DNA of 64,000 nt from Acidobacteriota bacterium (GTDB lineage Bacteria > Acidobacteriota > Blastocatellia > Pyrinomonadales > Pyrinomonadaceae). The stretch is from NCBI GenBank assembly GCA_025463125.1, contig JAOAPX010000152.1, forward strand, positions 19,816 to 83,815, in the 5' to 3' direction. Numbering within the stretch: position 1 is the stretch's first letter; each line of letters opens with the position of its first letter. Shown here piece by piece: positions 49,374 through 63,603 of the stretch. Under the pieces are notes generated by a model, which searched no databases, was not told the DNA's origin, and saw nothing but the letters and a program-made list of their open reading frames with translations. The position numbers and the translations under genes are program-made.

Positions 49374-51959
49374 TTAAAACTTGACCGCGAAATTCTTTCC
49401 GTCCGCCGTCAAAACAGTCATCATATCTTTAACAAACGACATTTCGTGCTTGCCGTCAATTAAAGCTTCGATTTCGATGTAAGCGAGAACGCCCGAAGCG
49501 TTTTCCGCCATATCTTTCGCCGACGATAAGCTGACAAACGTTTTGCCGTTTTGATTTACAAACGGAGTCGCCGAAGTGTTCGCGATATCTTTACCGAAAA
49601 CATCGCCGTAACTGACCGAACGAACAGCCAGTTTTTTATTATCGAACTGCAAACCTAAAACAGCCGAACGAAACGCCGAAGCGCTTTTCACCATAACGGG
49701 AATTTTCGTTTTCTCGCCGGCTTTCATTTCAGACAAAGCCGTCAGAAACTGAATCTCAGCCAGCGGAGCGTTTGCCGGAACAGTTTCAGAAGCTTTGTTT
49801 TCTTTATTTTCATTCGGTTTTAACGAAGTTTCCTGAAAGTTCAAAATTCCCTGTCCTGTTTGCGTGTTGCCGGCGGTCGGATTGATTTGCAAAGTTTGCA
49901 CGCCGGAATCAATCGGTCGAATGCTCGACAGCTGCAAGCCGGAGCTTTGCGCCGAAGCGTTTGCCGTCGTTTGCTGCCCGGCTGAAGGATTTTCCGCCGC
50001 CGAATTTGTTTGCGAAACCGCTTGCGCGTCGCTTGATTTTACGTAAGCCGGCGCGTCTTCCGCTTTTTGATCCGGCAATTGAACCTGGGCGACGGTCGGC
50101 AGACGGCGGGCGGCGGCGAGCAGTTCTTCGCGTTCTTCCTGAATAATCATCGCTTCGAGCGAACCGCTTGTCGGAACAGCGACGCTTCCCGTCGGGCGTT
50201 CGATTTCATCTTCCGGCAAAATTGAAGGCGCGCGGATAACTCTCGGCGTCACGGCGATAACAATGTCAACCTGGCGGTTGTCTTTCGTCGGCGCTGTAAA
50301 AAGTCTGCCGATAATCGGAATCAAGCCGAGAAGCGGCAATCCCTGCCGCCCGTTGGTTTGAGTATCCTGAGCGACGCTCGCTAAAAGAAGCGTTTTGTTG
50401 TTTTGGACGCGCGCCGTTCCCTTGATTACGCGTTCGGAAAAACACGGGTTTCCCGTGGTGGTTCCGCAGGCGACGACGTCTTTCGATTCGATTTCCATTG
50501 CCACCTGAACGTCCTGATTCGGGAAAACGATCGGTTTGAACTTTAAGGTTAAACCGACCTGTTCGTAATTGATAACCGAAGCCGCATTATTATTGATGCC
50601 TCCGCCGGGCTGACCGGGCTGATTGCCGTAACCGAGAAGCTGCGCGGTTTGTACCGGAACTCGCTGACCGATTCGCGCCGAAGAATCTTCATTGTTAAAA
50701 GCGTGAATCTGCGTCGAAGCGAGAAGCTTTGTGTTTTGCCTGTTTTGAAAAGCGACCAGGTTGACCGCCGGAAGCACCAAGCCGACGCCGAAAATATTTG
50801 AGATTATGTCAGTCCCTCTTCCAATGACTCCGTAATTGTTGTCTCTTTTGCCGAGTCCGACAACGCCGCTCGTTGTTCCGCCTAAATTTGTCAGGGACGC
50901 TTCGTTACCGATCTGATTCCCCAATTTTAACAAGTCGGATTTTGAAACTTCATAAATCGCCACGTCCATCACTACTTCGGCGCGATCTTTATCAAGCGAA
51001 GTAATCAGCTTGCCCATCAAGCGGATATTTTCTTCCGTGTCGCGAATCGTGATGCTGTTTGTATCTTCGTCAACGATTGAAACGGTCGGGATTCTGCCGG
51101 GCTGCGCTGGAATCGCGCCCTGCAAAACTTTCTGCACGTCTTTCGGGTCGGCGTTTGCCAGGTAAAACGTGCGTAAGACCAATTGCTGAAAATTCTGACG
51201 GCGAACGCCGTTAGCGATTAAAATCGTGCGCGGTCCGACCTTTTGGAAAAACAATCCTTCCTGCAAAAAGATATAATCCAGAGCTTTCGCGGCGGTTACG
51301 TTTTTCAACTCGATTTTCGTGGTTCTCGCCGTGCGGAAAGATTCGGAATCGAAAAGCACGTTTAAATCCAGGTCTTTCGCGAGTTCCTTGATAATAAACT
51401 GCAAATCGACTCCGCTCGGAAACGGCACGTCGCGCAATTTTTCGAGTTTTTGCGGAACCTGCACGTCTTGCGACGCGCCCGCGTTGTAACCGGTTTTAAC
51501 GAGCTTTACGTCAGTGCCGCCGTTATCATTTCTTTTCTCTTCGGAGTCGTCTCCGTTTTCCAGTCCTCTTTGCAAACGAATCATTTTTTCCATCTGATCT
51601 TTTGCAAGTTCATTGACCGGGTCGAAGGCATAAGCCTTGCGGTATGCGAGGTAGGCGCCTTCGTAATCTTTTTCCGCCGCCAGCGAATTTCCTCTTTTCA
51701 TAAACATCTGCGAGGCGTTGAAAATAGCGCGCTGGTAATGCAGACGATACTCTGGATTTTTCGGATTGTCGGCGACCGCCAAAGCGAACTGCTCGACGGC
51801 TTTATCCCATTGCTCAGCAATTTCGGCTTTCATTCCTTCTTTGAAGAATTTTTTCCCGTCGCCTAATGCCAGGACAGAGGTGGGCGCAAGCATCGATGCG
51901 ACGAGCATCAAAGAAAGTAAAAAACGAATATAAGCTGCTGTTTTTGCTGATTTATACAT
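49374..51959 (-). CDS. Secretin (GspD/PilQ family) with an N-terminal TPR region and a C-terminal cohesin-like domain
   Basis: The signal peptide starts at 51959. TPR-like helices are encoded at about 51593-51866. Secretin core (ARIGQRVPV...LLASVAQD...IVIAVTPRVI). A low-complexity linker precedes the terminal 129 aa (49377-49763), which resemble a cohesin fold. Confidence 0.85.
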   Translation of the reverse strand: MYKSAKTAAYIRFLLSLMLVASMLAPTSVLALGDGKKFFKEGMKAEIAEQWDKAVEQFALAVADNPKNPEYRLHYQRAIFNASQMFMKRGNSLAAEKDYEGAYLAYRKAYAFDPVNELAKDQMEKMIRLQRGLENGDDSEEKRNDNGGTDVKLVKTGYNAGASQDVQVPQKLEKLRDVPFPSGVDLQFIIKELAKDLDLNVLFDSESFRTARTTKIELKNVTAAKALDYIFLQEGLFFQKVGPRTILIANGVRRQNFQQLVLRTFYLANADPKDVQKVLQGAIPAQPGRIPTVSIVDEDTNSITIRDTEENIRLMGKLITSLDKDRAEVVMDVAIYEVSKSDLLKLGNQIGNEASLTNLGGTTSGVVGLGKRDNNYGVIGRGTDIISNIFGVGLVLPAVNLVAFQNRQNTKLLASTQIHAFNNEDSSARIGQRVPVQTAQLLGYGNQPGQPGGGINNNAASVINYEQVGLTLKFKPIVFPNQDVQVAMEIESKDVVACGTTTGNPCFSERVIKGTARVQNNKTLLLASVAQDTQTNGRQGLPLLGLIPIIGRLFTAPTKDNRQVDIVIAVTPRVIRAPSILPEDEIERPTGSVAVPTSGSLEAMIIQEEREELLAAARRLPTVAQVQLPDQKAEDAPAYVKSSDAQAVSQTNSAAENPSAGQQTTANASAQSSGLQLSSIRPIDSGVQTLQINPTAGNTQTGQGILNFQETSLKPNENKENKASETVPANAPLAEIQFLTALSEMKAGEKTKIPVMVKSASAFRSAVLGLQFDNKKLAVRSVSYGDVFGKDIANTSATPFVNQNGKTFVSLSSAKDMAENASGVLAYIEIEALIDGKHEMSFVKDMMTVLTADGKNFAVKF

Positions 51960-52138
51960 AATTTTGAGTTGAATTGGATTATTTAAAGACTGCAAAAGCT
52001 TGTGTAACTGCAAACTTCACACGCCCGCGGCACCGCAAAGTTTCAAAAGTTTCACGGAGAAACTCGAACAAAATCATTTCATTTTGCAATAATTATTCGA
52101 TTACTTCAATATAATCAACTAAATAATCAACGAAATAT

Positions 52139-53821
52139 TTACCTGACATCTTCGACAAAAGTTACGCGATTTATTTCATGCAGCGTCGTCTGCCCGGCGA
52201 AAACTTTTTTCACAGCCGACTCGCGCAAACTCGAAAGCCCTTCTTTTTCAGCCTGACGCCGAATTTCCGAACCCGGACGGCGCGCGATAATCATTTCGCG
52301 AATCGTGTCCGACATATCGAGCAGCTCGTGAATCGCCGAACGCCCGCGATAACCCGTGTGATTGCAGGCGTCGCAGCCGACGCTCATATAAAAATGCGTG
52401 TTGCCGACGCTTTCGGGTCGAAGTCCCGATTCGATTAATTCATCCTGGCTCGGCTGGTAAGCTCGCTTGCAGGTGGCGCAAAGTTTACGGACAAGACGCT
52501 GAGCGAGAACGCAGTTGAGCGCCGCAACGAAGTTGTACAGGTCAACCTGCATATTCAAAAAACGCCCGATAACGTCGATCACGTTGTTGGCGTGAACGGT
52601 TGTGAAAACAAGGTGACCGGTCAGCGCCGAGTTGATGGCGATCTGCGCCGTTTCCTCGTCGCGAATCTCCCCGACCATTACCTTATCCGGGTCGTGGCGC
52701 AGAATCGAACGAAGCCCGCGCGCGAAAGTCAAACCTTTCTTTTCGTTGACGGGAATCTGCATAATTCCCTGCAGCTGATACTCGACCGGGTCTTCGATCG
52801 TGATGATCTTGTCTTCGGTATTGCGAATTTCGTTAAGCGCCCCGTAAAGCGTCGTCGTTTTACCGGAACCGGTCGGACCCGTTACGAGAACCATTCCGTA
52901 AGGCTCCTTGATATACAAACGAAAGCGCTGCAAATCTTCCGGGTCAAAACCGACGACTTCGAGACTTAAGTTTTTAAATTCCTCGGAAATCTGTTCTTTA
53001 TCGAGAATACGAATAACGCAGTTTTCGCCGTAAGCCGCCGGCAGAATCGAAACGCGAAAGTCAACCGTTCTGCCTTTGTACCGAACTCTGAATCTGCCGT
53101 CCTGCGGGATTCTGCGCTCGGCGATGTCGAGCTCCGACATTACCTTGATACGCGAAATCAGCGTTTGGTGATACGCCATATCGATCGGATCGACTTTTTG
53201 ATAAAGCGCCCCGTCGATACGGAATTTAACGGCTAAATCGCGGTCGCCCGCTTCGATATGAATATCGGATGCGCGCGATTCCATCGCGTTGTAAACGATC
53301 GTGTCAACCAATTTAATAATCGGCGACATATCGGAATCCGACGCGAGACGGTCTAAATCCAAAACTTCTTCGCCCTGATCGGTTTCTTTAACAAGCGAAA
53401 TCTTAAAGCCCGAAGCGGCTTCCTGCAAAACTCTCTGCGTCGCGTCGCCTCTTTTCAGCACGACGTCAATCGCGCCCTGCGTCGCGACATACGGAACGAT
53501 GCGGACGTTCAGCGCGTTTTCGAGCTCGGCGAGATGCTCCAGGTTGGTCGGGTCAGCCATCGCCGCGTGCAGATTTCTGCCTTCGCGTTTTAAGGGAATA
53601 AAATGATTGCGAAGCATCAAATCAACCGGAATTTTCGTCAGCTCGTCATAATCGATCGGCGATTCCTGATCGGGCGGCAGCAAATCGATATAAGGCAAAC
53701 GGTAACGCCGCGCCAGGGCTTTCGCTTCCCTGACTTCGGGCGGCTCGTTTTCGAGAAAATCAGTCGAAATTTTCGGCGGAGCAGCCGTCGTGACAGTCGC
53801 TCCGTTATTTTGATTGTTCAT
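52139..53821 (-). CDS. Type II secretion / type IV pilus assembly ATPase (GspE/PilB family)
   Basis: T2SSE N-terminal domain, Walker A GPTGSGKTT, Asp and His boxes, and the tetracysteine motif CATCKR...CDACNHTGYRGR. Confidence 0.95.
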   Translation of the reverse strand: MNNQNNGATVTTAAPPKISTDFLENEPPEVREAKALARRYRLPYIDLLPPDQESPIDYDELTKIPVDLMLRNHFIPLKREGRNLHAAMADPTNLEHLAELENALNVRIVPYVATQGAIDVVLKRGDATQRVLQEAASGFKISLVKETDQGEEVLDLDRLASDSDMSPIIKLVDTIVYNAMESRASDIHIEAGDRDLAVKFRIDGALYQKVDPIDMAYHQTLISRIKVMSELDIAERRIPQDGRFRVRYKGRTVDFRVSILPAAYGENCVIRILDKEQISEEFKNLSLEVVGFDPEDLQRFRLYIKEPYGMVLVTGPTGSGKTTTLYGALNEIRNTEDKIITIEDPVEYQLQGIMQIPVNEKKGLTFARGLRSILRHDPDKVMVGEIRDEETAQIAINSALTGHLVFTTVHANNVIDVIGRFLNMQVDLYNFVAALNCVLAQRLVRKLCATCKRAYQPSQDELIESGLRPESVGNTHFYMSVGCDACNHTGYRGRSAIHELLDMSDTIREMIIARRPGSEIRRQAEKEGLSSLRESAVKKVFAGQTTLHEINRVTFVEDVR

Positions 53822-53824
53822 AAA

Positions 53825-55063
53825 TTATTTTTTTCCGCCGAACGGACCTGACGAAATCGTTTGAATAATCGGCAGATAAATCGCCAGCAAAATCGTAATG
53901 ACGATTCCAGCCATAAATAAAAGGATTAGAGGTTCGAGAAGCGTTGTGAGTTGCTCTAAACGCACCTCGGATTCGGCATCGTAGAAATTGGCGACTTCAT
54001 CGAGCATTTCGCGCAAGCTGCCGGAGCTTTCGCCGATGCCGATCATATCGAGCGCGAGCTCGGGCAGCCAGTTGGCTTTTCCGAGCGCCTCGGTAAAGCC
54101 GCGACCTTCGCGAATTAAAGGCAAAACCGCCTGGCTTAAGCGGCGAAGTTCCAGATTATTGATCGATTGCGAAGCGATGTCCCACGATTCGGGAACCGTA
54201 ATGCCGCCTGAAAGAAGAGTTGAAAGCGAGCGGGCGAGCTGCGCCATCGTCATTTGACGAATTAAAGCGCCGACGATCGGAAGTTTCAGTAAAAATTTGT
54301 GCAAAAGCAGCTTCCCGTTCGGAGTTCGGAAATAAAGCACTACGGCAAAACCGAGCACCAAAACCATCGGTAAAAGCCACCAGATGTTTGTCGCAACGGT
54401 GGTGGAAATCGCCAGGACGACGATCGTCACCGTCGGCAAACCCTGATTGGCGTTGATGCCTTTGAATAAATCCGACATTCGCGGAACGATATAGAGCGTT
54501 AGAAACGCCACCATGAATGTTGCCGCGACCAGCAAAAAAGCCGGGTAAGCGAGCGCGCCGCGAAGTTTTCGCGAAACGCCGACGCTGCGCTTTAGATAAT
54601 TAACGAATCGTTCGAGAACATTGTCGAGCGCGCCTGATTTTTCGCCGGAAAGCAGCGAAGCGGTGTAGATTTTCGGAAAAATTCCCTGAGATTCAAATGC
54701 TTCGGACAGCGGAATGCCGCTTTTAATCTTGTCTTCGACGTCCGCCAAAACTCTGCGCATACTTTCCGAACCCGAACGGTTTCGCAAAAGCCCGATTGAT
54801 TGCAAAACGGGGATACCGGCGCGAAGAAGCGCGGAAAGCTGCTGGTTGAAAAGCAAAAAATCGCCCTGCTTGACGCGCCCTTTTTTGCCCGGACTGCCGA
54901 TCGGCAAAACAGCGGAAAGACCGCGTTCAGCCGAGGAAACGGTAAAAACCTTAAAGCCTTCGCTTTCGAGCTGCCGCTTTGCTTCGCCGCTCCCGCTCGA
55001 TTCGACGACTCGCGTTATAACATCGCCCGACGGCGTTCCGAGACGACAGATAAATTCAGCCAT
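53825..55063 (-). CDS. Type II secretion / type IV pilus platform protein (GspF/PilC family)
   Basis: Two T2SSF repeats with three TM helices. 412 aa, located directly upstream of the ATPase gene. Confidence 0.92.
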   Translation of the reverse strand: MAEFICRLGTPSGDVITRVVESSGSGEAKRQLESEGFKVFTVSSAERGLSAVLPIGSPGKKGRVKQGDFLLFNQQLSALLRAGIPVLQSIGLLRNRSGSESMRRVLADVEDKIKSGIPLSEAFESQGIFPKIYTASLLSGEKSGALDNVLERFVNYLKRSVGVSRKLRGALAYPAFLLVAATFMVAFLTLYIVPRMSDLFKGINANQGLPTVTIVVLAISTTVATNIWWLLPMVLVLGFAVVLYFRTPNGKLLLHKFLLKLPIVGALIRQMTMAQLARSLSTLLSGGITVPESWDIASQSINNLELRRLSQAVLPLIREGRGFTEALGKANWLPELALDMIGIGESSGSLREMLDEVANFYDAESEVRLEQLTTLLEPLILLFMAGIVITILLAIYLPIIQTISSGPFGGKK

Positions 55064-55389
55064 ACTTAAAAATTACGATTATCGATTAGAAATTTACGAT
55101 TTATATTTGTGACTTTTCGCCTTTTATCCTGGTGTTGTTGCAATAATCGTAAAATTTTATAATTAATTTTAAGAGCGATTAATTAAGCTTAAAAAGGCAT
55201 ATAATAAATCCAAAAAAAGAAATACGTCGAATTATATCACGCACATATAAAAAAAAGGTTGCAATAGAGGCGCATTTGCCCGAATATTTTTTAGCTTGCA
55301 CAACGATATGTAGTTTACCAACATCAAAAAAAATATCTTGCGGAAGTTAAATTCATTGACTTAAACTAGAGACAATCAAGGAGATTATT

Positions 55390-56385
55390 ATGGCTGTGAA
55401 AATTTCGTGTAATTTCAGCCGATTAAGTATCGCGCAGCAGTTGTTTTTGTTGTCTATAGTCCTCACTTTCGGTACGATTTCGGTATTTTCACAAACGCCG
55501 CAGCCGACTCCGCCCGTGCAGGACGACGACGGGCGTCCGATTACGATTAAAACCGATCTGGTAACGCTTACCTTAACCGTTACAGACGTTTACGGTCGCT
55601 ACGTGTCGGGCTTGTCGAAAAACGCATTTACAATTCTCGATAACAATCAGGAACAGGAAATTACTTATTTTAGCGATGCCGACGCGCCGGTTTCGGTCGG
55701 TATCCTGTTTGACGTTTCAGATTCGATGAGCGGCGAGAAAATCGGCAAAGCGCGCAAAGCTTTGGAAAGATTTATCGGCACGAGTCATCCTTCGGACGAA
55801 TATTTTTTAATCGCTTTTAACAATCGCGCCCAGCTTTTGCTTGACCGCACGCGCGACGGCGAATCGGTTTTGCAAAAACTTACGCTCGTTGACCCGCGCA
55901 ACAACACGGCGCTTTACGACGCCGTTTATCTCGGCGCGGAAAAGGTCACGCGCGGTTCGCATCAGAAAAAAGCGATGCTGATAATCAGCGACGGTCAGGA
56001 CAATTCTTCGCGCTATAATTTCGGCGAAGTCCGCCGCCTTTTGAAAGAATCCGACGTTGTAACTTACGCCGTCGGAATTATGGACGGCGGCGACGCGGGC
56101 AGCCCGACCGGTATGCAGGGACAGGCGTTTTTAGACGAGCTGACTTCGGTTACGGGCGGAAAATCTTTTTATCCGCAGACTGACGTTGAGATGGACGAGA
56201 TATTCGAACGCATCGCGCTCGAGCTCCGGCATCAATACTCGATCGGGTATACGCCGAAAGATTTCGACCCGAACGGTAAATGGCACAAAGTAAAAGTTAA
56301 GGTCAAACCTCCGCGCGGTTTACCGCGTCTAACGGTCAGAAGCCGGGATGGTTATTACGCCACGCCGACGACTCTATATCGTTAA
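55390..56385 (+). CDS. Secreted vWA domain protein (acidobacterial VWFA-related type)
   Basis: Signal peptide, an N-terminal beta-sandwich-like segment (IKTDLVTLTLTVTDVYGRYVSGLSKNAFTILDNNQEQEITYF), and the MIDAS motif DVSDSMSG. Confidence 0.8.
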   Translation: MAVKISCNFSRLSIAQQLFLLSIVLTFGTISVFSQTPQPTPPVQDDDGRPITIKTDLVTLTLTVTDVYGRYVSGLSKNAFTILDNNQEQEITYFSDADAPVSVGILFDVSDSMSGEKIGKARKALERFIGTSHPSDEYFLIAFNNRAQLLLDRTRDGESVLQKLTLVDPRNNTALYDAVYLGAEKVTRGSHQKKAMLIISDGQDNSSRYNFGEVRRLLKESDVVTYAVGIMDGGDAGSPTGMQGQAFLDELTSVTGGKSFYPQTDVEMDEIFERIALELRHQYSIGYTPKDFDPNGKWHKVKVKVKPPRGLPRLTVRSRDGYYATPTTLYR

Positions 56386-56405
56386 GTTGTAGTTTAAGAA
56401 ATAAA

Positions 56406-57515
56406 ATGAAAAGAAATATTTTCGTAATTTTGCCGCTTGTCTTGTGCGGAGCATTTGCCCTTGCTTTTTTTGATTTATCGGCTGCGAGCGCTCAGAATCC
56501 GACGACCAATCGTCAGAGACAAATTCCCGCGCCGACGCCTTCGCCGACGCCTTCGGTTGCGCCTTCAGTCAGCCCGACGCCGGAAGTAGAAGAAATTATC
56601 AAGATCGATACCGAGCTCGTAAATTTGAATGTTCGCGTGGTGGATCGCAATAATCGTCCGGTAAACAATTTATCTCCGAAAGAATTTCAAATTTTCGAAG
56701 ACAATATTTTGCAGCCGATTGAATTTTTCTCGAAATCCGAAGTTCCGACCAATTATTCGCTCGTTATTGATAATTCCGGTTCGCTTCGGATGCAGCTTGA
56801 AAAAGTTATCGAAGCCGGAAAAATTATCGTTAATACGAACCGCGCGGACGATGAAACATCGGTTATACGCTTTATCAGCTCAGACAAAATAGAAATCGTT
56901 CAGGATTTTACGCCGAACAAAACCGATATTATAGACGCGCTCGATAATCTTTACACCGAAGGCGGGCAGACGGCGATTATTGACGCGGTTTATCTCGCGG
57001 CTGAAAAAGTTACGGAATACGAAAAATCTCGCTCGGACGATCGCAAACGCCGCGCTTTGATTCTGGTTTCCGACGGCGAAGACCGCGACAGTTTTTACAA
57101 AGAGCCGCAGCTTTTCGAGCTTCTGCGCGAATCCGACGTACAGATTTACACGATCGGTTTCGTCGGCGAGCTCAGCAAAGAAGGCGGATTTATCAGCAAA
57201 AGCCCGCAATCGAAAGCCAAAGCGCTTTTGGAAAGATTGGCGACCGAAACCGGCGGAAAATCTTATTTTCCGAATAGCATCAACGAGCTGACAACGATCG
57301 CGCAGGATATCGCCAGCGAGCTTCGCACACAATATTCAATCGGTTATATTCCGACCAACGACCGCCGCGACGGCACATTCAGAAATATCAAAGTTCAGGT
57401 AGCCGACGGACCCAACAAACAAAAACGAATCGCCGTCACCAGAAGCGGCAGAACCGCTACGCCGGAAGGCGCGCCGCCGAGCCTGCAAAACACGACTAAA
57501 AAGAGCTCGGAATAA
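56406..57515 (+). CDS. Secreted vWA domain protein, paralog of 55390-56385
   Basis: Same architecture: IKIDTELVNLNVRVVDRNNRPVNNLSPKEFQIFEDNILQPIEFF, with MIDAS motif DNSGSL. Confidence 0.8.
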   Translation: MKRNIFVILPLVLCGAFALAFFDLSAASAQNPTTNRQRQIPAPTPSPTPSVAPSVSPTPEVEEIIKIDTELVNLNVRVVDRNNRPVNNLSPKEFQIFEDNILQPIEFFSKSEVPTNYSLVIDNSGSLRMQLEKVIEAGKIIVNTNRADDETSVIRFISSDKIEIVQDFTPNKTDIIDALDNLYTEGGQTAIIDAVYLAAEKVTEYEKSRSDDRKRRALILVSDGEDRDSFYKEPQLFELLRESDVQIYTIGFVGELSKEGGFISKSPQSKAKALLERLATETGGKSYFPNSINELTTIAQDIASELRTQYSIGYIPTNDRRDGTFRNIKVQVADGPNKQKRIAVTRSGRTATPEGAPPSLQNTTKKSSE

Positions 57516-57628: not shown

Positions 57629-57952
57629 TTACTTTCTCTCCGGCACTGAACCGGAAATTTTCTTGCGCGTTGTCTCGCCCGTGTCGATAACCGGAATGCC
57701 GTCCGAAACTTCCGCGTGCGGGCGCGGAATAACGTGCACAGCCGTTACGGTTCCGATGCGCCGCGCCGCCGCCGCGCCCGCATCGACAGCCGCTTTTACA
57801 GCTCCGACTTCGCCGCGCACAATCGCGGTGACGAGTCCGGCGTCAATTTTTTCGTAGCCGACGAGACGGACGTTTGCAGCCTTGACCATCGTGTCGGCAG
57901 CTTCGATCATCGCAACCATTCCCATACATTCAACCATTCCGAGTGCTTCCAT
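57629..57952 (-). CDS. Bacterial microcompartment shell protein, BMC-H (PduA/EutM-like hexamer)
   Basis: [79 protein letters not shown] is a full single BMC domain. It is followed by a ~25-aa tail. Confidence 0.93.
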
Positions 57953-58040: not shown

Positions 58041-58078
58041 TTTTGCTTTTTTACTTTATTTTTGCTTTTTTACTTTAA
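58041..58078. repeat. 19-nt tandem duplication spanning the stop codon of the zinc-ribbon gene
   Basis: ttttgcttttttactttat followed by ttttgcttttttactttaa (18 of 19 positions identical). Confidence 0.7.
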
Positions 58079-58531
58079 TTGAATCGCTAAAAAAACTATG
58101 ACAATCGCAAATACCATTATTACAAGCGCAACGAGCGCGAACGCCGCGCCAGACTTTTCTTCCGGTTCTTCCCAAACAATTTCGATTTCTTTTTTTTGAA
58201 AAGATTTCGCTTTATTTCGCAAAGAAGCGGCGGATTTTAATTTGGCATCTTTTATCAAATCCGGCTTTTTTTCCGCTGATCCGGCTTTTTCTATCGAAAC
58301 GGGTTTTTGCGTCTCATCGATCGCGTCCGGGACTGGAGTTTTTTCGACAACTTCTCTTTGCTGTTTGCCGGAAAACAATTCGTCTTTGATTCGGCTTTTC
58401 CCATTTTTCCCGCCGTTTTCGGAAGAATTCGGAGAAATAGCGCTTCCGCAGTTGTAACAAAACAACGCCTGCGGGCGAACATTGACTCCGCATGTTTTAC
58501 AAACCTGATTTTCGACGATAATTTCAGCCAT
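58070..58531 (-). CDS. Zinc-ribbon protein with a disordered linker and a C-terminal transmembrane anchor
   Basis: CKTCGVNVRPQALFCYNCGS (CxxC-N12-CxxC), a Lys/Glu-rich linker, and the terminal helix AAFALVALVIMVFAIVIVFLAIQLK. Confidence 0.65.
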   Translation of the reverse strand: MAEIIVENQVCKTCGVNVRPQALFCYNCGSAISPNSSENGGKNGKSRIKDELFSGKQQREVVEKTPVPDAIDETQKPVSIEKAGSAEKKPDLIKDAKLKSAASLRNKAKSFQKKEIEIVWEEPEEKSGAAFALVALVIMVFAIVIVFLAIQLK

Positions 58532-58627: not shown

Positions 58628-60406
58628 TTATTGCTGTTTGGCAAAAATATCTTTTTCATCGCCTAAATCACGGGCTGAAGGCGTGATGATCGTTTTCGCC
58701 GTGACGTAAATTTTTTCGCCGTTTTCCAGCGCCCGCTTCACGTCGTCTTCGCTGACAAAATCCACGGCTTTCGGTTTCGCCCCGTTGCCGGAATTTTCCG
58801 GTTTCAATTCGTGTATGATTGTTTTCACGGGCGACACGGGTGAATTTGCGATTTCCGGTTTCGGAGCCGCGGTTTCTTTCGGCGCTTCGACCGCGCCGCT
58901 CGATTTTTGATTTTCGTTTAACTTGCCCGATAAAAATTTATCGACGATTGCGGCAATCGCTTCGCGTTTTGCTGATTTGTCGCCGCCGCCTGGAGTTTGC
59001 GGTGTAAAATTGCCGGAAACATTGTTTTGGGTTTTGAATTTCGCGCTTTGAGCCGAAGCGACGGGCTTTGTTTCAAAAGCGACGCGTTTGATGTCCATTA
59101 AATGAAGCGGCGAAACATTGTCGGAAGTAACGTTTCCGCCCCAGGAACCGCACCCTAAAGTCATCGAAGGCGCTAAATCCGTCGAAAACCCGATCGCTCC
59201 GTGCGTCGTCGGCGAATTTATAACTACGCGCGAAGCGGGCATCTGCGCGCCGTAAGCGATTGCCGCCGCGCGATCCTGCGTGTGCATTCCGGCTGTGTGA
59301 CCCATTCCGCCGAACTGCAAAACCTCCAAACATCTGCGCGCGCCCTGCTCGACGCCTTCAACTACGAAAAACGCCAAGGTCGGTGAAAGCTTTTCGATCG
59401 ACCAGGGGAAATCGCGCCCGATTCCGCCGCAATCGGCAAGCAGGCAGCGCGTCCCGGAAGGCACGGAAACTCCGGCTAAATTTGCGATGTATTCGGCTGA
59501 TTTTCCAACGATTTTCGGATTTAAGGTTCTTTGCGGGGTCAATAAAACTTCGGCGACTTTTTCGGCTTCCGCCTGATTTAAGAAATGTCCGCCCTGCAAT
59601 TTAAATTGTTCGCGCACCCGCGCTTCGATCGGCGCATCGACAACGACAGATTGTTCGGAAGCGCAAATCGTGCCGTTATCAAAACAGGTTCCGGTCAGAA
59701 TGTCGCCGACCGCCTTTTCGACGTTTGCAGTTCTTTCGATAAAAACCGGAACGTTTCCCGGACCGACTCCGAAAGCGGGTTTTCCCGAAGAATAAGCCGC
59801 GCGAACCAAACCGGTTCCGCCGGTTGCAAGAATGACCGCCGTGCGTTTGTGCTTCATCAGAGCTTCGGTGCCTTCGATTGTCGAATTCGTCAGGCACTGA
59901 ATCGCATCCGGCGGCAAACCTTCTCTGACGCCGACTTCGCGCATTATTCTCGCCGTTTCCGCAATCGAGCGGGCGGCTGAAGGATGCGGCGAGAGAACGA
60001 TCGTATTTCTCGATTTAACCGCGATTATAATTTTAAAGATGGTCGTCGAAGTCGGGTTCGTCGAAGGAATAATCGCCGCGACGACTCCGCGCGGCGAGGC
60101 GATTTCAACGATGCTTTCGGTTTCGCGAACGACGCCGACCGTTTTTAAGTTACGAAAATAATTCCAGACGTCTTCCGCCGCAAAACGATTTTTCTCGCGT
60201 TTGTCTTCGGCTTTGCCGAAACCGGTTTCTTCGTGAGCCATCGAACCGAGACGCGCCGATTCCGCCAGCGCGGCTTTCGCCATCGCTTCGCAGATTCGAT
60301 CGATTTTCGTCTGGTCGAACGCGGCAACAGACGTAAAAGCAAGATGCGCGGCTTCGACCGCGTCGCGCGCTTCCTGCTGTGCAATTAAATCGTTGTGTTC
60401 GGGCAT
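58628..60406 (-). CDS. CoA-acylating aldehyde dehydrogenase (AdhE N-terminal-domain type) with a ~147-aa C-terminal extension
   Basis: Collinear by eye with the ALDH half of AdhE ([68 protein letters not shown]). No Fe-ADH domain follows. Residues 446-592 form a novel tail. Confidence 0.92.
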
Positions 60407-60497: not shown

Positions 60498-60893
<396 letters not shown>

Positions 60894-61020
60894 TGTTTAT
60901 TCCTCTCTTTTTTGATTTACCTTATCAGATTTTAATATAAGCTTTTAATAAAGCCTAAACGTAACACGGGGAAAATCAATAATCAAGCCCGCACCTTTTA
61001 ACTAAAAGACTTTGAAACAA

Positions 61021-61050
61021 TTGACATTTTCCGTCCGACAAAGATATATT
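61021..61050 (+). promoter_or_regulatory. Candidate sigma-70 promoter of rodZ
   Basis: TTGACA (61021-61026), an 18-nt spacer, then TATATT (61045-61050). Confidence 0.45.
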
Positions 61051-61113
61051 TCAAATCTAAGATCGTTTTTATTTAGCAGTTTTCCAAACGCAGTAATACC
61101 CGTAAACAACAAC

Positions 61114-61944
61114 ATGTCACAAACACTTGGCGAAAAATTGCGACAAGCCCGCGAAGAGCGAGGCATCAGTATCAGTGAAGTTGCGGAGCAGACGCGAATC
61201 TCTCCGCACTACCTGGAATTAATCGAAAACGATGATTACCGAACGCTGCCCGGCGGAATTTTTAACAAAGGTTTTGTTAAATCTTACGCCAAATATGTCG
61301 GTATCGACGAAGTCGAAGCGTTACAGGACTATTCCAGATTGATTTCCTCGCAAAGCAGTGAAACAAGCGAAGAGCCGAAAACATATCGCCCGGAAGTTTT
61401 GACCGACGAGCGATCGAGTTCTTCGTTTCTTCCGACGCTGATTTTTGCCGCTGTGATTCTCGGTTTAATGACCGTGGGAATACTCGCGCTCGTTAATTAT
61501 CTGCAATCGGAATCGGCTGTTGTCGTAACAAACAATATTAATCAGGCAAATTCCAACGCCGCGAACGCTAATCCGGCTGCGGCGAGCACGCCGCAGGCAA
61601 ACACGGCTCAAGCGATTCCCGCAACCGATGAAATAAAACTGGAATTTAAATCTCTGGCGGATGTTATCTCGGTCAGCGCGACGGTTGACGGAAAATTGAC
61701 GAACGAAAGCGTCACGAAAGAAAATCCGAAAACCTATACCGGGCAGCAGAGCGTAAAGGTTAGGTATTACAAAGGTTTTGCCAATCAGGTTCAATTGTCG
61801 CTTAACGGAAAACAAATCACTGCGCCCGCGGCGCCCGCAAGAGGCAACGGAATCGAGGTTGAAATCAACAAAAACAATATCGCTCAAATTTTACAGAGCG
61901 GACAAATTCAAACCGGAGCCGCGGCACCGGCTGCGCCCAGATAA
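61114..61944 (+). CDS. rodZ: RodZ-like cytoskeleton protein (HTH, TM helix, C-terminal DUF4115-like domain)
   Basis: LGEKLRQAREERGISISEVAEQTRISPHYLELIENDDY...PGGIFNKGFVKSYAKYVG, a TM helix, and a C-terminal beta domain. I prefer the start at 61114 because the candidate promoter lies inside the longer track ORF. Confidence 0.8.
   Translation: MSQTLGEKLRQAREERGISISEVAEQTRISPHYLELIENDDYRTLPGGIFNKGFVKSYAKYVGIDEVEALQDYSRLISSQSSETSEEPKTYRPEVLTDERSSSSFLPTLIFAAVILGLMTVGILALVNYLQSESAVVVTNNINQANSNAANANPAAASTPQANTAQAIPATDEIKLEFKSLADVISVSATVDGKLTNESVTKENPKTYTGQQSVKVRYYKGFANQVQLSLNGKQITAPAAPARGNGIEVEINKNNIAQILQSGQIQTGAAAPAAPR

Positions 61945-62121: not shown

Positions 62122-63603
<1,482 letters not shown>

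Follow-up and report, generated by a model that had tools for sequence, protein, structure and literature searches.

The closest described relatives of the gene considered here are the coenzyme A (CoA)-acylating aldehyde dehydrogenases (AldDhs) of bacterial microcompartments (BMCs). Sutter et al. (2021) distinguish two types: type I (IPR013357), dominated by EUT2 loci and carrying an encapsulation peptide at the C-terminus, and type II (IPR012408), comprising PduP and EutE, with the peptide at the N-terminus. Among the BMC types catalogued in the same work (Sutter, Melnicki, Schulz, Woyke & Kerfeld 2021, Nat Commun 12:3809, Supplementary Data 2) is ACI, with 125 loci found exclusively in Acidobacteria, mainly in subdivisions 4 and 6. 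The ACI main locus encodes a PF00596 aldolase with a C-terminal peptide, a 2-hydroxyacid dehydrogenase and a BMC-P triplet; the AldDh is encoded apart from it, on a satellite locus with BMC-H, and carries an encapsulation peptide near its C-terminus followed by a domain of ~50 aa described as 'of unknown function'. ACI shells consist of BMC-H and BMC-P, with BMC-T only occasional. Here we analyze an AldDh gene and its surroundings in a 64,000-nucleotide stretch of DNA (hereafter the window) from an Acidobacteriota bacterium of the family Pyrinomonadaceae (contig JAOAPX010000152.1, positions 19,816 to 83,815).

The locus is an instance of the catalogued ACI satellite AldDh. Pyrinomonadaceae sit in Blastocatellia, that is, in subdivision 4; the AldDh gene is flanked by two PF00936 genes, with the main locus outside the 64-kb window (a tblastn search with E. 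coli EutN found no BMC-P-like sequence in it); and an encapsulation-peptide-like helix near the C-terminus is followed by a domain of ~50 aa. Both the gene and its architecture are already known, and nothing structural differs from the published description. What is new is a modest piece of annotation: profile comparisons assign the terminal domain to a family of modules found at the N-terminus of EutQ, the N-terminus of EutT and the C-terminus of TIGR02536 proteins. The AldDh protein is 100% identical to an entry annotated 'MAG: Acidobacteria bacterium' and has at least 120 full-length homologues of 574-608 aa and 77-86% identity, those with names being from Pyrinomonadaceae/Acidobacteriota. 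The gene is built as follows.

58628..60406, minus strand: complete gene for an ACI-type AldDh assigned to the type I CoA-acylating enzymes, 592 aa plus stop (open reading frame (ORF), PF00171, TIGR02518 at 566 bits).
59069..60406, minus strand: catalytic core, residues 1-446, without N-terminal extension (alignments to TIGR02518, 5j78 and 3k9d; Foldseek).
59663..59665, minus strand: codon of the catalytic Cys248 (motif aligns with type I AldDhs and AdhE; residue invariant in alignment A5).
58631-59071, minus strand: C-terminal tail of 147 residues, 446-592.
58979..59068, minus strand: variable low-complexity linker 1, residues 447-476 (low conservation and indels in 120 homologues; AlphaFold2 (AF2) confidence, pLDDT, below 50).
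58907..58978, minus strand: encapsulation-peptide-like helix 1, residues 477-500 (nearly invariant; AF2 helix; hxxhhxxhh pattern).
58802..58834, minus strand: second short conserved amphipathic motif, residues 525-535 (nearly invariant in 120 homologues).
58637..58786, minus strand: terminal module, conserved over residues 541-591, predicted fold 548-590 (homologous to EutQ-N, EutT-N and TIGR02536-C).

A first-pass annotation, made by eye from the DNA, had placed the ORF, the tail (446-592), the Cys248 codon and the helix (quoted there as residues 478-496, 58919-58975) exactly as we find them. It had also located the module correctly, apart from a start (58768) one codon too far upstream: V548-F588 corresponds to 58643-58765.

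Across the 120 homologues the tail resolves into three nearly invariant islands, residues 480-500, 525-535 and 541-591, separated by variable, indel-rich linkers. The same three islands recur in relatives with a core identity of only 40-46% (P0251 has 665 aa). High-GC relatives have longer Ala/Pro-rich linkers and keep all three elements, including DRQVVAKIVERVMTQFGIPRG and SIAAEIADRLFG, the latter being the counterpart of 525-535; one cluster of divergent module-bearing relatives is from a Terriglobia metagenome-assembled genome. A HMMER profile of the terminal island, searched against 1.84 billion representatives at E<=1e-3, matched 620, and the best 150 of these were all either C-terminal fragments (the majority) or full-length sequences of ACI-type AldDhs.

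The first island has the features expected of an encapsulation peptide: a helix of ~15-20 residues with the pattern hxxhhxxhh, attached through a poorly conserved flexible linker. Its segment IAAIVDKFL fits the pattern of LINLLVQRL, of IKNIIKSVL and of IEQVVKAVL from EutE, and its hydrophobic pattern is also that of the C-terminal peptides of EUT2 type I AldDhs. AF2 predicts a helix here both for the tail alone (476-501, pLDDT 70-87) and for the full-length protein (477-498, pLDDT 39-51). The earlier description of this helix as encapsulation-peptide-like thus agrees with its conservation, its predicted structure and its canonical pattern. The second island, 525-535, gave no confident helix in either model. 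To the eye, 'KTIIHELKP' is similar to 'ETIIAQLP' and 'IAAIVDKFL' to 'VAQLMEKVM', the second of each pair being from helices H3/H4 of EutQ; the segments are too short for testing and their order is permuted, and we make no claim of homology. The third island is predicted in the full-length model as a compact alpha/beta mini-domain (strand 548-551, helix 553-562, strand segment 566-574, helix 576-584, strand 588-590; pLDDT 81-89) of order beta-alpha-beta-beta-alpha-beta.

This terminal module was compared with known families in several ways. A Pfam scan of the tail and of its last 50 residues, at E<=10, returned only noise (DUF4258, E 0.12), and PF12557 (Co_AT_N), a possible name for the module, matched neither EutT nor the module in the scans run. 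The module profile gave only chance matches (nucleolin, TBP) among all PDB sequences, and hence no solved homologue. In NCBIfam the last 40 positions of TIGR02536 were matched weakly (E 6.4e-4), and BLASTP against E. coli EutQ aligned module residues 10-43 (ACI 550-583) with EutQ 4-39 (E 6e-5). Against the 13 E. coli Eut proteins and AdhE, with E-values scaled to a proteome of 4300 proteins, a hidden Markov model (HMM) of the ACI module matched only the N-termini of EutQ (0.005) and EutT (0.02).

For a broader comparison we used 80 loci, from species-representative genomes, that encode relatives of the stand-alone enzyme 5j78 (the type I sample). Among their 8149 ORFs the ACI-module HMM matched the N-terminus of a long EutQ (E 1.7e-8), where it lies outside the Pfam EutQ cupin (80-222), the C-terminus of TIGR02536 proteins (E 7.8e-7), the N-termini of EutT-type adenosyltransferases and of EutT-PduL fusions, and small proteins of 80-96 aa. 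A profile iterated on the non-ACI matches only recovered ACI residues 551-580 (E 1e-6), and hhalign matched 28 ACI with 46 non-ACI modules at 98.3% probability (E 1.3e-14, 39 columns). These sets had been seeded from ACI, and two ACI-blind profiles were therefore built: one from the first 50 residues of EutT homologues picked by their catalytic domain, the other from the last 50 residues of TIGR02536 homologues picked by their N-terminal 165 residues. In 8150 sequences these matched ACI 553-581 (EutT, E 2.3e-4) and ACI 551-580 (TIGR02536, E 5.3e-4). The matches share, in register and at the level of profiles, the pattern ITE-x-D-hR ... I-hTP-x-A+D. By these comparisons the last ~45 residues of the ACI AldDh are assigned to the EutQ-N/EutT-N/TIGR02536-C module family, which bears out the likeness to EutQ-N that the first-pass annotation had noted.

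The module keeps company with shells. It is present in 54 of the 61 type I loci that have a BMC-H gene within 10 kb and in 0 of the 19 that have none (Fisher 6e-13, for loci that are not phylogenetically independent). Its attachment to the AldDh itself was seen in 0 of the 80 sampled non-ACI type I enzymes.

Several observations concern the other carriers of the module. The stand-alone proteins of 80-96 aa, in EUT2-type loci of Fusobacteria and Clostridia (L078:13813-14085, L083:13853-14143, L059:11879-12121), have an EutQ-N-type module and, after it, one or two helices resembling encapsulation peptides, in effect a cupin-less 'EutQ 1-99'; they match no Pfam or NCBIfam family above threshold. 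Gram-positive EutQs of 148-160 aa (L047, L049, L061, L062, L080 and others; ORFs near 15.9-16.5 kb) have only a peptide-like helix at their start, with no module; in these loci the module is found at the C-terminus of TIGR02536 proteins (ORFs near 13.3-14.1 kb) and the N-terminus of EutT. This suggests that the shell-binding element of Gram-positive EUT2 moved to other carriers and was not lost. In Priestia (L032:12496-13155) the C-terminal module region of a TIGR02536-like protein weakly matches PduM (TIGR04493, E 5e-4) at that family's C-terminus, a hint that PduM may carry an EutQ-N-type module.

The catalytic core tells to which AldDhs this tail is attached. A Pfam scan of the protein found PF00171 alone and no trace of an iron-dependent alcohol dehydrogenase (Fe-ADH) domain. 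The best NCBIfam model is TIGR02518, 'acetaldehyde dehydrogenase (acetylating)', at 566 bits (equivalog cut-off 620.1), followed by the AdhE model NF010378 at 538 bits (cut-off 951), matched over profile positions 10-451 of 872 only, SauS at 312 (cut-off 600) and the EutE/PduP-type PRK15398 at 244 (cut-off 403). Alignments begin at residue 3-6 throughout (TIGR02518 over residues 5-459, 5j78 over 6-449, 3k9d over 3-444), leaving no N-terminal extension. Searched against PDB sequences, the core is closest to the stand-alone enzymes 5j78 (3e-146) and 3k9d of Listeria (2e-135), with AdhE (1e-111 to 1e-102), SucD (2e-87) and PduP-type enzymes (1e-46 to 7e-50) below them; Foldseek with the full-length AF2 model ranks them likewise, with 5j78/5j7i and 3k9d at the top, and recovered ALDHs only.

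Identity over the core is 42-51% to type I AldDhs, 42% to the N-terminal half of E. coli AdhE (42-44% by tblastn over residues 13-445, 2e-94) and 27.5% to EutE. The active-site motif is identical in Listeria 3k9d, and reads FDNNIICADEKVLIV in E. coli EutE; PduP/EutE enzymes, which share with ACI the superfamily, the acylating chemistry and a role in metabolosomes, differ in this motif (C-A-D/E-E-K) and in the N-terminal position of their peptide. The active-site motif and a second core motif are common to AdhE almost letter for letter, and equally to the stand-alone enzymes.

A neighbor-joining tree of 448 core columns, with EutE as outgroup, five ACI sequences and 200 bootstraps, placed all five inside type I. 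ACI grouped with type I to the exclusion of AdhE in 195 of 200 replicates and with AdhE in none (0/200); type I was monophyletic without ACI in 5 of 200. The rankings by HMM, PDB and Foldseek point the same way. Together these comparisons indicate that the window AldDh core belongs to the type I BMC clade, a sister lineage of the AdhE aldehyde dehydrogenase (ALDH) domain. The nearest neighbors of ACI in the tree are type I AldDhs of Ignavibacteria and Bacteroidota (60% bootstrap; L037, L043-L046, L051, L053, L056, L060, L064, L065, L067, L082), which lack a shell gene within 10 kb; their tails are long and include two helical motifs that are conserved, SWIEEIEERIRLKAGN and GISKEKVDELMKKF, and they probably belong to scattered FRAG-type compartments.

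Of particular relevance to the tail is the organization of other type I enzymes. At shell loci their tails consist of a variable linker and then an amphipathic helix (for example KEELINLLVQRLVKELA in C. difficile and LSRDEIKNIIKSVLTEMT in Brevibacillus), the Priestia enzyme having two helices. A C-terminal tail on an AdhE-like ALDH is thus the rule for the clade and not an oddity. The EUT2 type I AldDhs (IPR013357/TIGR02518; Listeria 3k9d, C. difficile) resemble ACI in core, in active-site motif, in the lack of an N-terminal extension and in the C-terminal linker with amphipathic helix; they differ in that their tails are 40-100 residues long, against 147, and in that the module is carried by separate proteins, TIGR02536 and EutT. 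In Faecalimicrobium dakarense (L070:1923-3824) a 633-aa AldDh ORF continues past the C-terminal peptide into BMC-P-like sequence (MILAKVVGRVIS...), either a natural fusion of AldDh and pentamer or an artefact of assembly or frameshift.

The shell genes next to the AldDh, and the gene that separates it from one of them, are these.

60498..60893, minus strand: upstream BMC-H, 131 aa, directly adjoining the AldDh gene (PF00936, 3.8e-29).
57629..57952, minus strand: downstream second BMC-H, 107 aa (PF00936, 2.8e-28).
58070..58531, minus strand: 153-aa zinc-ribbon protein with a C-terminal transmembrane helix, between the AldDh and the second BMC-H (weak zinc-ribbon Pfam matches).

The order HTH_25, BMC-H, AldDh, zinc-ribbon/transmembrane protein, BMC-H is kept on four long contigs of close relatives and on a fifth, truncated one. 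A BMC-H gene lies directly upstream of the AldDh in the window and in 7 of 7 related contexts, one of them from a relative only ~46% identical; the second BMC-H is kept in loci of the Pyrinomonadaceae type. Among the contexts examined no tail-bearing AldDh was found without an adjacent shell gene.

Two accounts of the gene can be weighed on this evidence. The first-pass annotation took it for an enzyme of AdhE lineage that had exchanged its ADH half for a targeting tail, an unusual and independent recruitment of AdhE to a BMC. Much that led to this reading holds: the core is far nearer to the ALDH half of AdhE than to EutE/PduP (538 against 244 bits), the core motifs are present and aligned with those of E. 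coli AdhE, the two proteins belong to the same acylating ALDH superclade, and one source annotates the window AldDh as 'adhE'. The enzyme is indeed remote from PduP/EutE; it was nonetheless mistaken to set it apart from the clades usual at BMC loci, for its best matches, TIGR02518/IPR013357, define the type I BMC clade. Stand-alone type I enzymes outscore AdhE in both sequence and structure, and the phylogeny that the annotation had itself proposed as a check puts the core inside this documented BMC clade, never paired with AdhE, which is the outcome that the annotation had named as speaking against its own reading. AdhE proper is fused to Fe-ADH, forms spirosomes, is not encapsulated and falls outside the clade of ACI and type I. 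There is no sign of a former ADH domain: the nearest relatives stand alone and already bear a C-terminal encapsulation peptide, so the tail elaborates a type I tail and does not substitute for an ADH domain. We regard descent from AdhE as very improbable. No better are the prospects of a cytosolic AldDh that merely adjoins shell genes and ends in a disordered appendage without targeting function. Disorder is predicted for a large part of the tail, and close relatives of the Geobacillus type (5j78; L004-L009) are short-tailed and lack neighboring shell genes. Against this account stand the near-invariance of the three islands and their persistence at 40-46% core identity, the BMC-H gene adjacent in every context examined, and the confinement of the module to shell-containing loci.

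A function for the module is suggested by recent work on Salmonella. Yang et al. (2025, Sci Adv 11:eadx9774; PMC12487888) found EutQ 1-99 sufficient to target GFP to Eut compartments, and the shell parted from the cargo when EutQ lost residues 9-41 (H1/H2), its flexible region, or residues 62-99 (H3/H4). H3/H4 binds the peptides of EutC and EutE with a Kd of about 6-8 uM; H1/H2 was assigned to binding of the shell (EutM/EutL). The first three helices are missing from Gram-positive EutQ, as the same authors noted, and they concluded that assembly must differ there. In addition, a structural-interactome atlas of 2026 holds a computed complex of Listeria TIGR02536 with EutL. The ACI tail and EutQ 1-99 (from Salmonella/E. 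coli) are alike in their parts: the module, flexible linkers and amphipathic helices. The order differs, EutQ having the module at its N-terminus, ahead of H3/H4 and the cupin acetate kinase, and the ACI AldDh having it at the C-terminal end, after the helices, fused to the enzyme itself. The fold also differs: an alpha/beta mini-domain in our AF2 model, helices only in Yang et al. The ACI module aligns with EutQ H1/H2, the reported shell binder, which makes shell docking its likeliest function.

We therefore favor, as the probable explanation, an ACI AldDh of type I equipped with encapsulation-peptide helices and a shell-docking module. The AldDh would be the aldehyde-oxidising core enzyme of an ACI-type metabolosome, working through thiohemiacetal chemistry on Cys248. 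Its tail would act as a flexible tether bearing the encapsulation-peptide helix (~477-498), the second amphipathic motif (525-535) and the compact alpha/beta module (548-590). The helices may let the enzyme coalesce with further cargo bearing such peptides, for instance the ACI aldolase, and the terminal module may attach it to the shell's inner face, the BMC-H hexamers encoded alongside being the probable docking site.

Several points weigh against this explanation. Association of EutQ with the Salmonella shell requires the BMC-T protein EutL as well as EutM, and ACI mostly lacks a EutL-type BMC-T; the assignment of EutQ H1/H2 to the shell comes from deletions, localisation and AlphaFold models, with no solved complex; and for the ACI components shell targeting and docking are read from homology. 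Confidence in the module is low when the tail is modelled by itself (pLDDT 45-75) and higher only in the full-length model, a gain that could reflect docking on the enzyme core or a more diverse alignment; the AF2 result may be compatible with intramolecular packing. The hydrophobic moment of full-length helix 1 is unremarkable and not separated from shuffles, and the pattern match is qualitative; we relied on the residue pattern because the hydrophobic moment fails on known peptides too (0.27 to 0.61). In the tree, built by a distance method only, AdhE and type II are each represented by one sequence. Lastly, the TIGR02518 score of 566 bits lies under the 620-bit equivalog cut-off: the protein is a clade member and not an assured acetaldehyde-specific equivalog, and its substrate need not be acetaldehyde.

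Some of these points favor a different role for the module, as an element acting within the enzyme or between cargo proteins (a lid, a piece for oligomerisation, or a handle for a lumenal partner), with the helices alone responsible for encapsulation. The partner might be one common to EutT, EutQ and TIGR02536 proteins, for example in cofactor recycling. The rise in module confidence in the presence of the core and the scarcity of EutL-type proteins in ACI shells are both in keeping with it, and the chemical diversity of the carriers (an adenosyltransferase, a cupin acetate kinase, a flavoprotein-like protein) would fit any shared partner. Yet ~100 residues of variable linker lie between core and module, and the occurrence of the module at either terminus of unrelated folds speaks against a lid specific to this core. 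The sole experimental data on a homologue, those for EutQ, assign the region to shell binding and find it needed for shell-cargo association, and the computational atlas predicts an interaction of Listeria TIGR02536 with EutL. We consider such a role unlikely, though much less so than either account weighed above.

The shell-docking explanation can be extended beyond ACI, more tentatively. The ~45-residue module may be a portable, general metabolosome shell-docking domain, distinct from encapsulation peptides, that has moved between carriers: EutQ/EutT in enterobacterial EUT1, TIGR02536/EutT and the 80-96-aa proteins in Gram-positive EUT2, and the AldDh in ACI. The tail of the ACI AldDh might then do the job of EutQ 1-99, serving as shell-cargo hub in a compartment that has no EutQ. 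We put the chances of this extension somewhat short of even.

The remaining genes near the AldDh add to the description of the satellite locus. The 153-aa protein (58070-58531), which the ACI text of Sutter et al. (2021) does not mention, has a zinc ribbon (CxxC...CxxC) at the N-terminus, then a disordered linker and a basic segment conserved as 'LKSAASLRxKxK..WEE', and a transmembrane helix at the C-terminus, a tail-anchored topology; it occupies the same position in five related loci (L001, L087, L088, L089, L090). As a speculation, it could link the compartment to the membrane. Divergent from the upstream BMC-H is a gene (61012-61944, plus strand) whose RodZ-like HTH_25 product is predicted to have a membrane segment. 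An HTH_25 gene adjoins the satellite locus in all contexts examined, also in L084, the high-GC relative with ~46% identity; its presence may reflect a regulatory role or synteny alone. The region downstream of this locus (49374-57515) contains two VWA-domain genes and a cluster resembling type IV pilus or type II secretion systems (T2SSF-, T2SSE- and secretin-like ORFs). Related contigs of Pyrinomonadaceae share this neighborhood, for which a connection with the microcompartment is not evident. The neighboring IMPDH gene (window 62134-63603, 489 aa) is without an intein; its counterparts in two related genomes, L087:5497-8322 and L088:1482-4403, contain one (Intein_splicing and LAGLIDADG).

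The gene in the window reveals no new kind of system; the useful part is the annotation of the ACI 'domain of unknown function'. The module recurs on EutQ, EutT and TIGR02536 proteins, matched no Pfam model here, and has one member recently tied by experiment to shell binding. If it is a general shell-docking element, it would explain how cargo and shell are linked in Gram-positive EUT2, whose EutQ lacks these helices, and the assembly of ACI compartments, abundant in the Acidobacteria of soils and with no known substrate, would become accessible to testing. Should the module prove portable between carriers, it would be a ready-made, transferable tag for engineered cargo loading.

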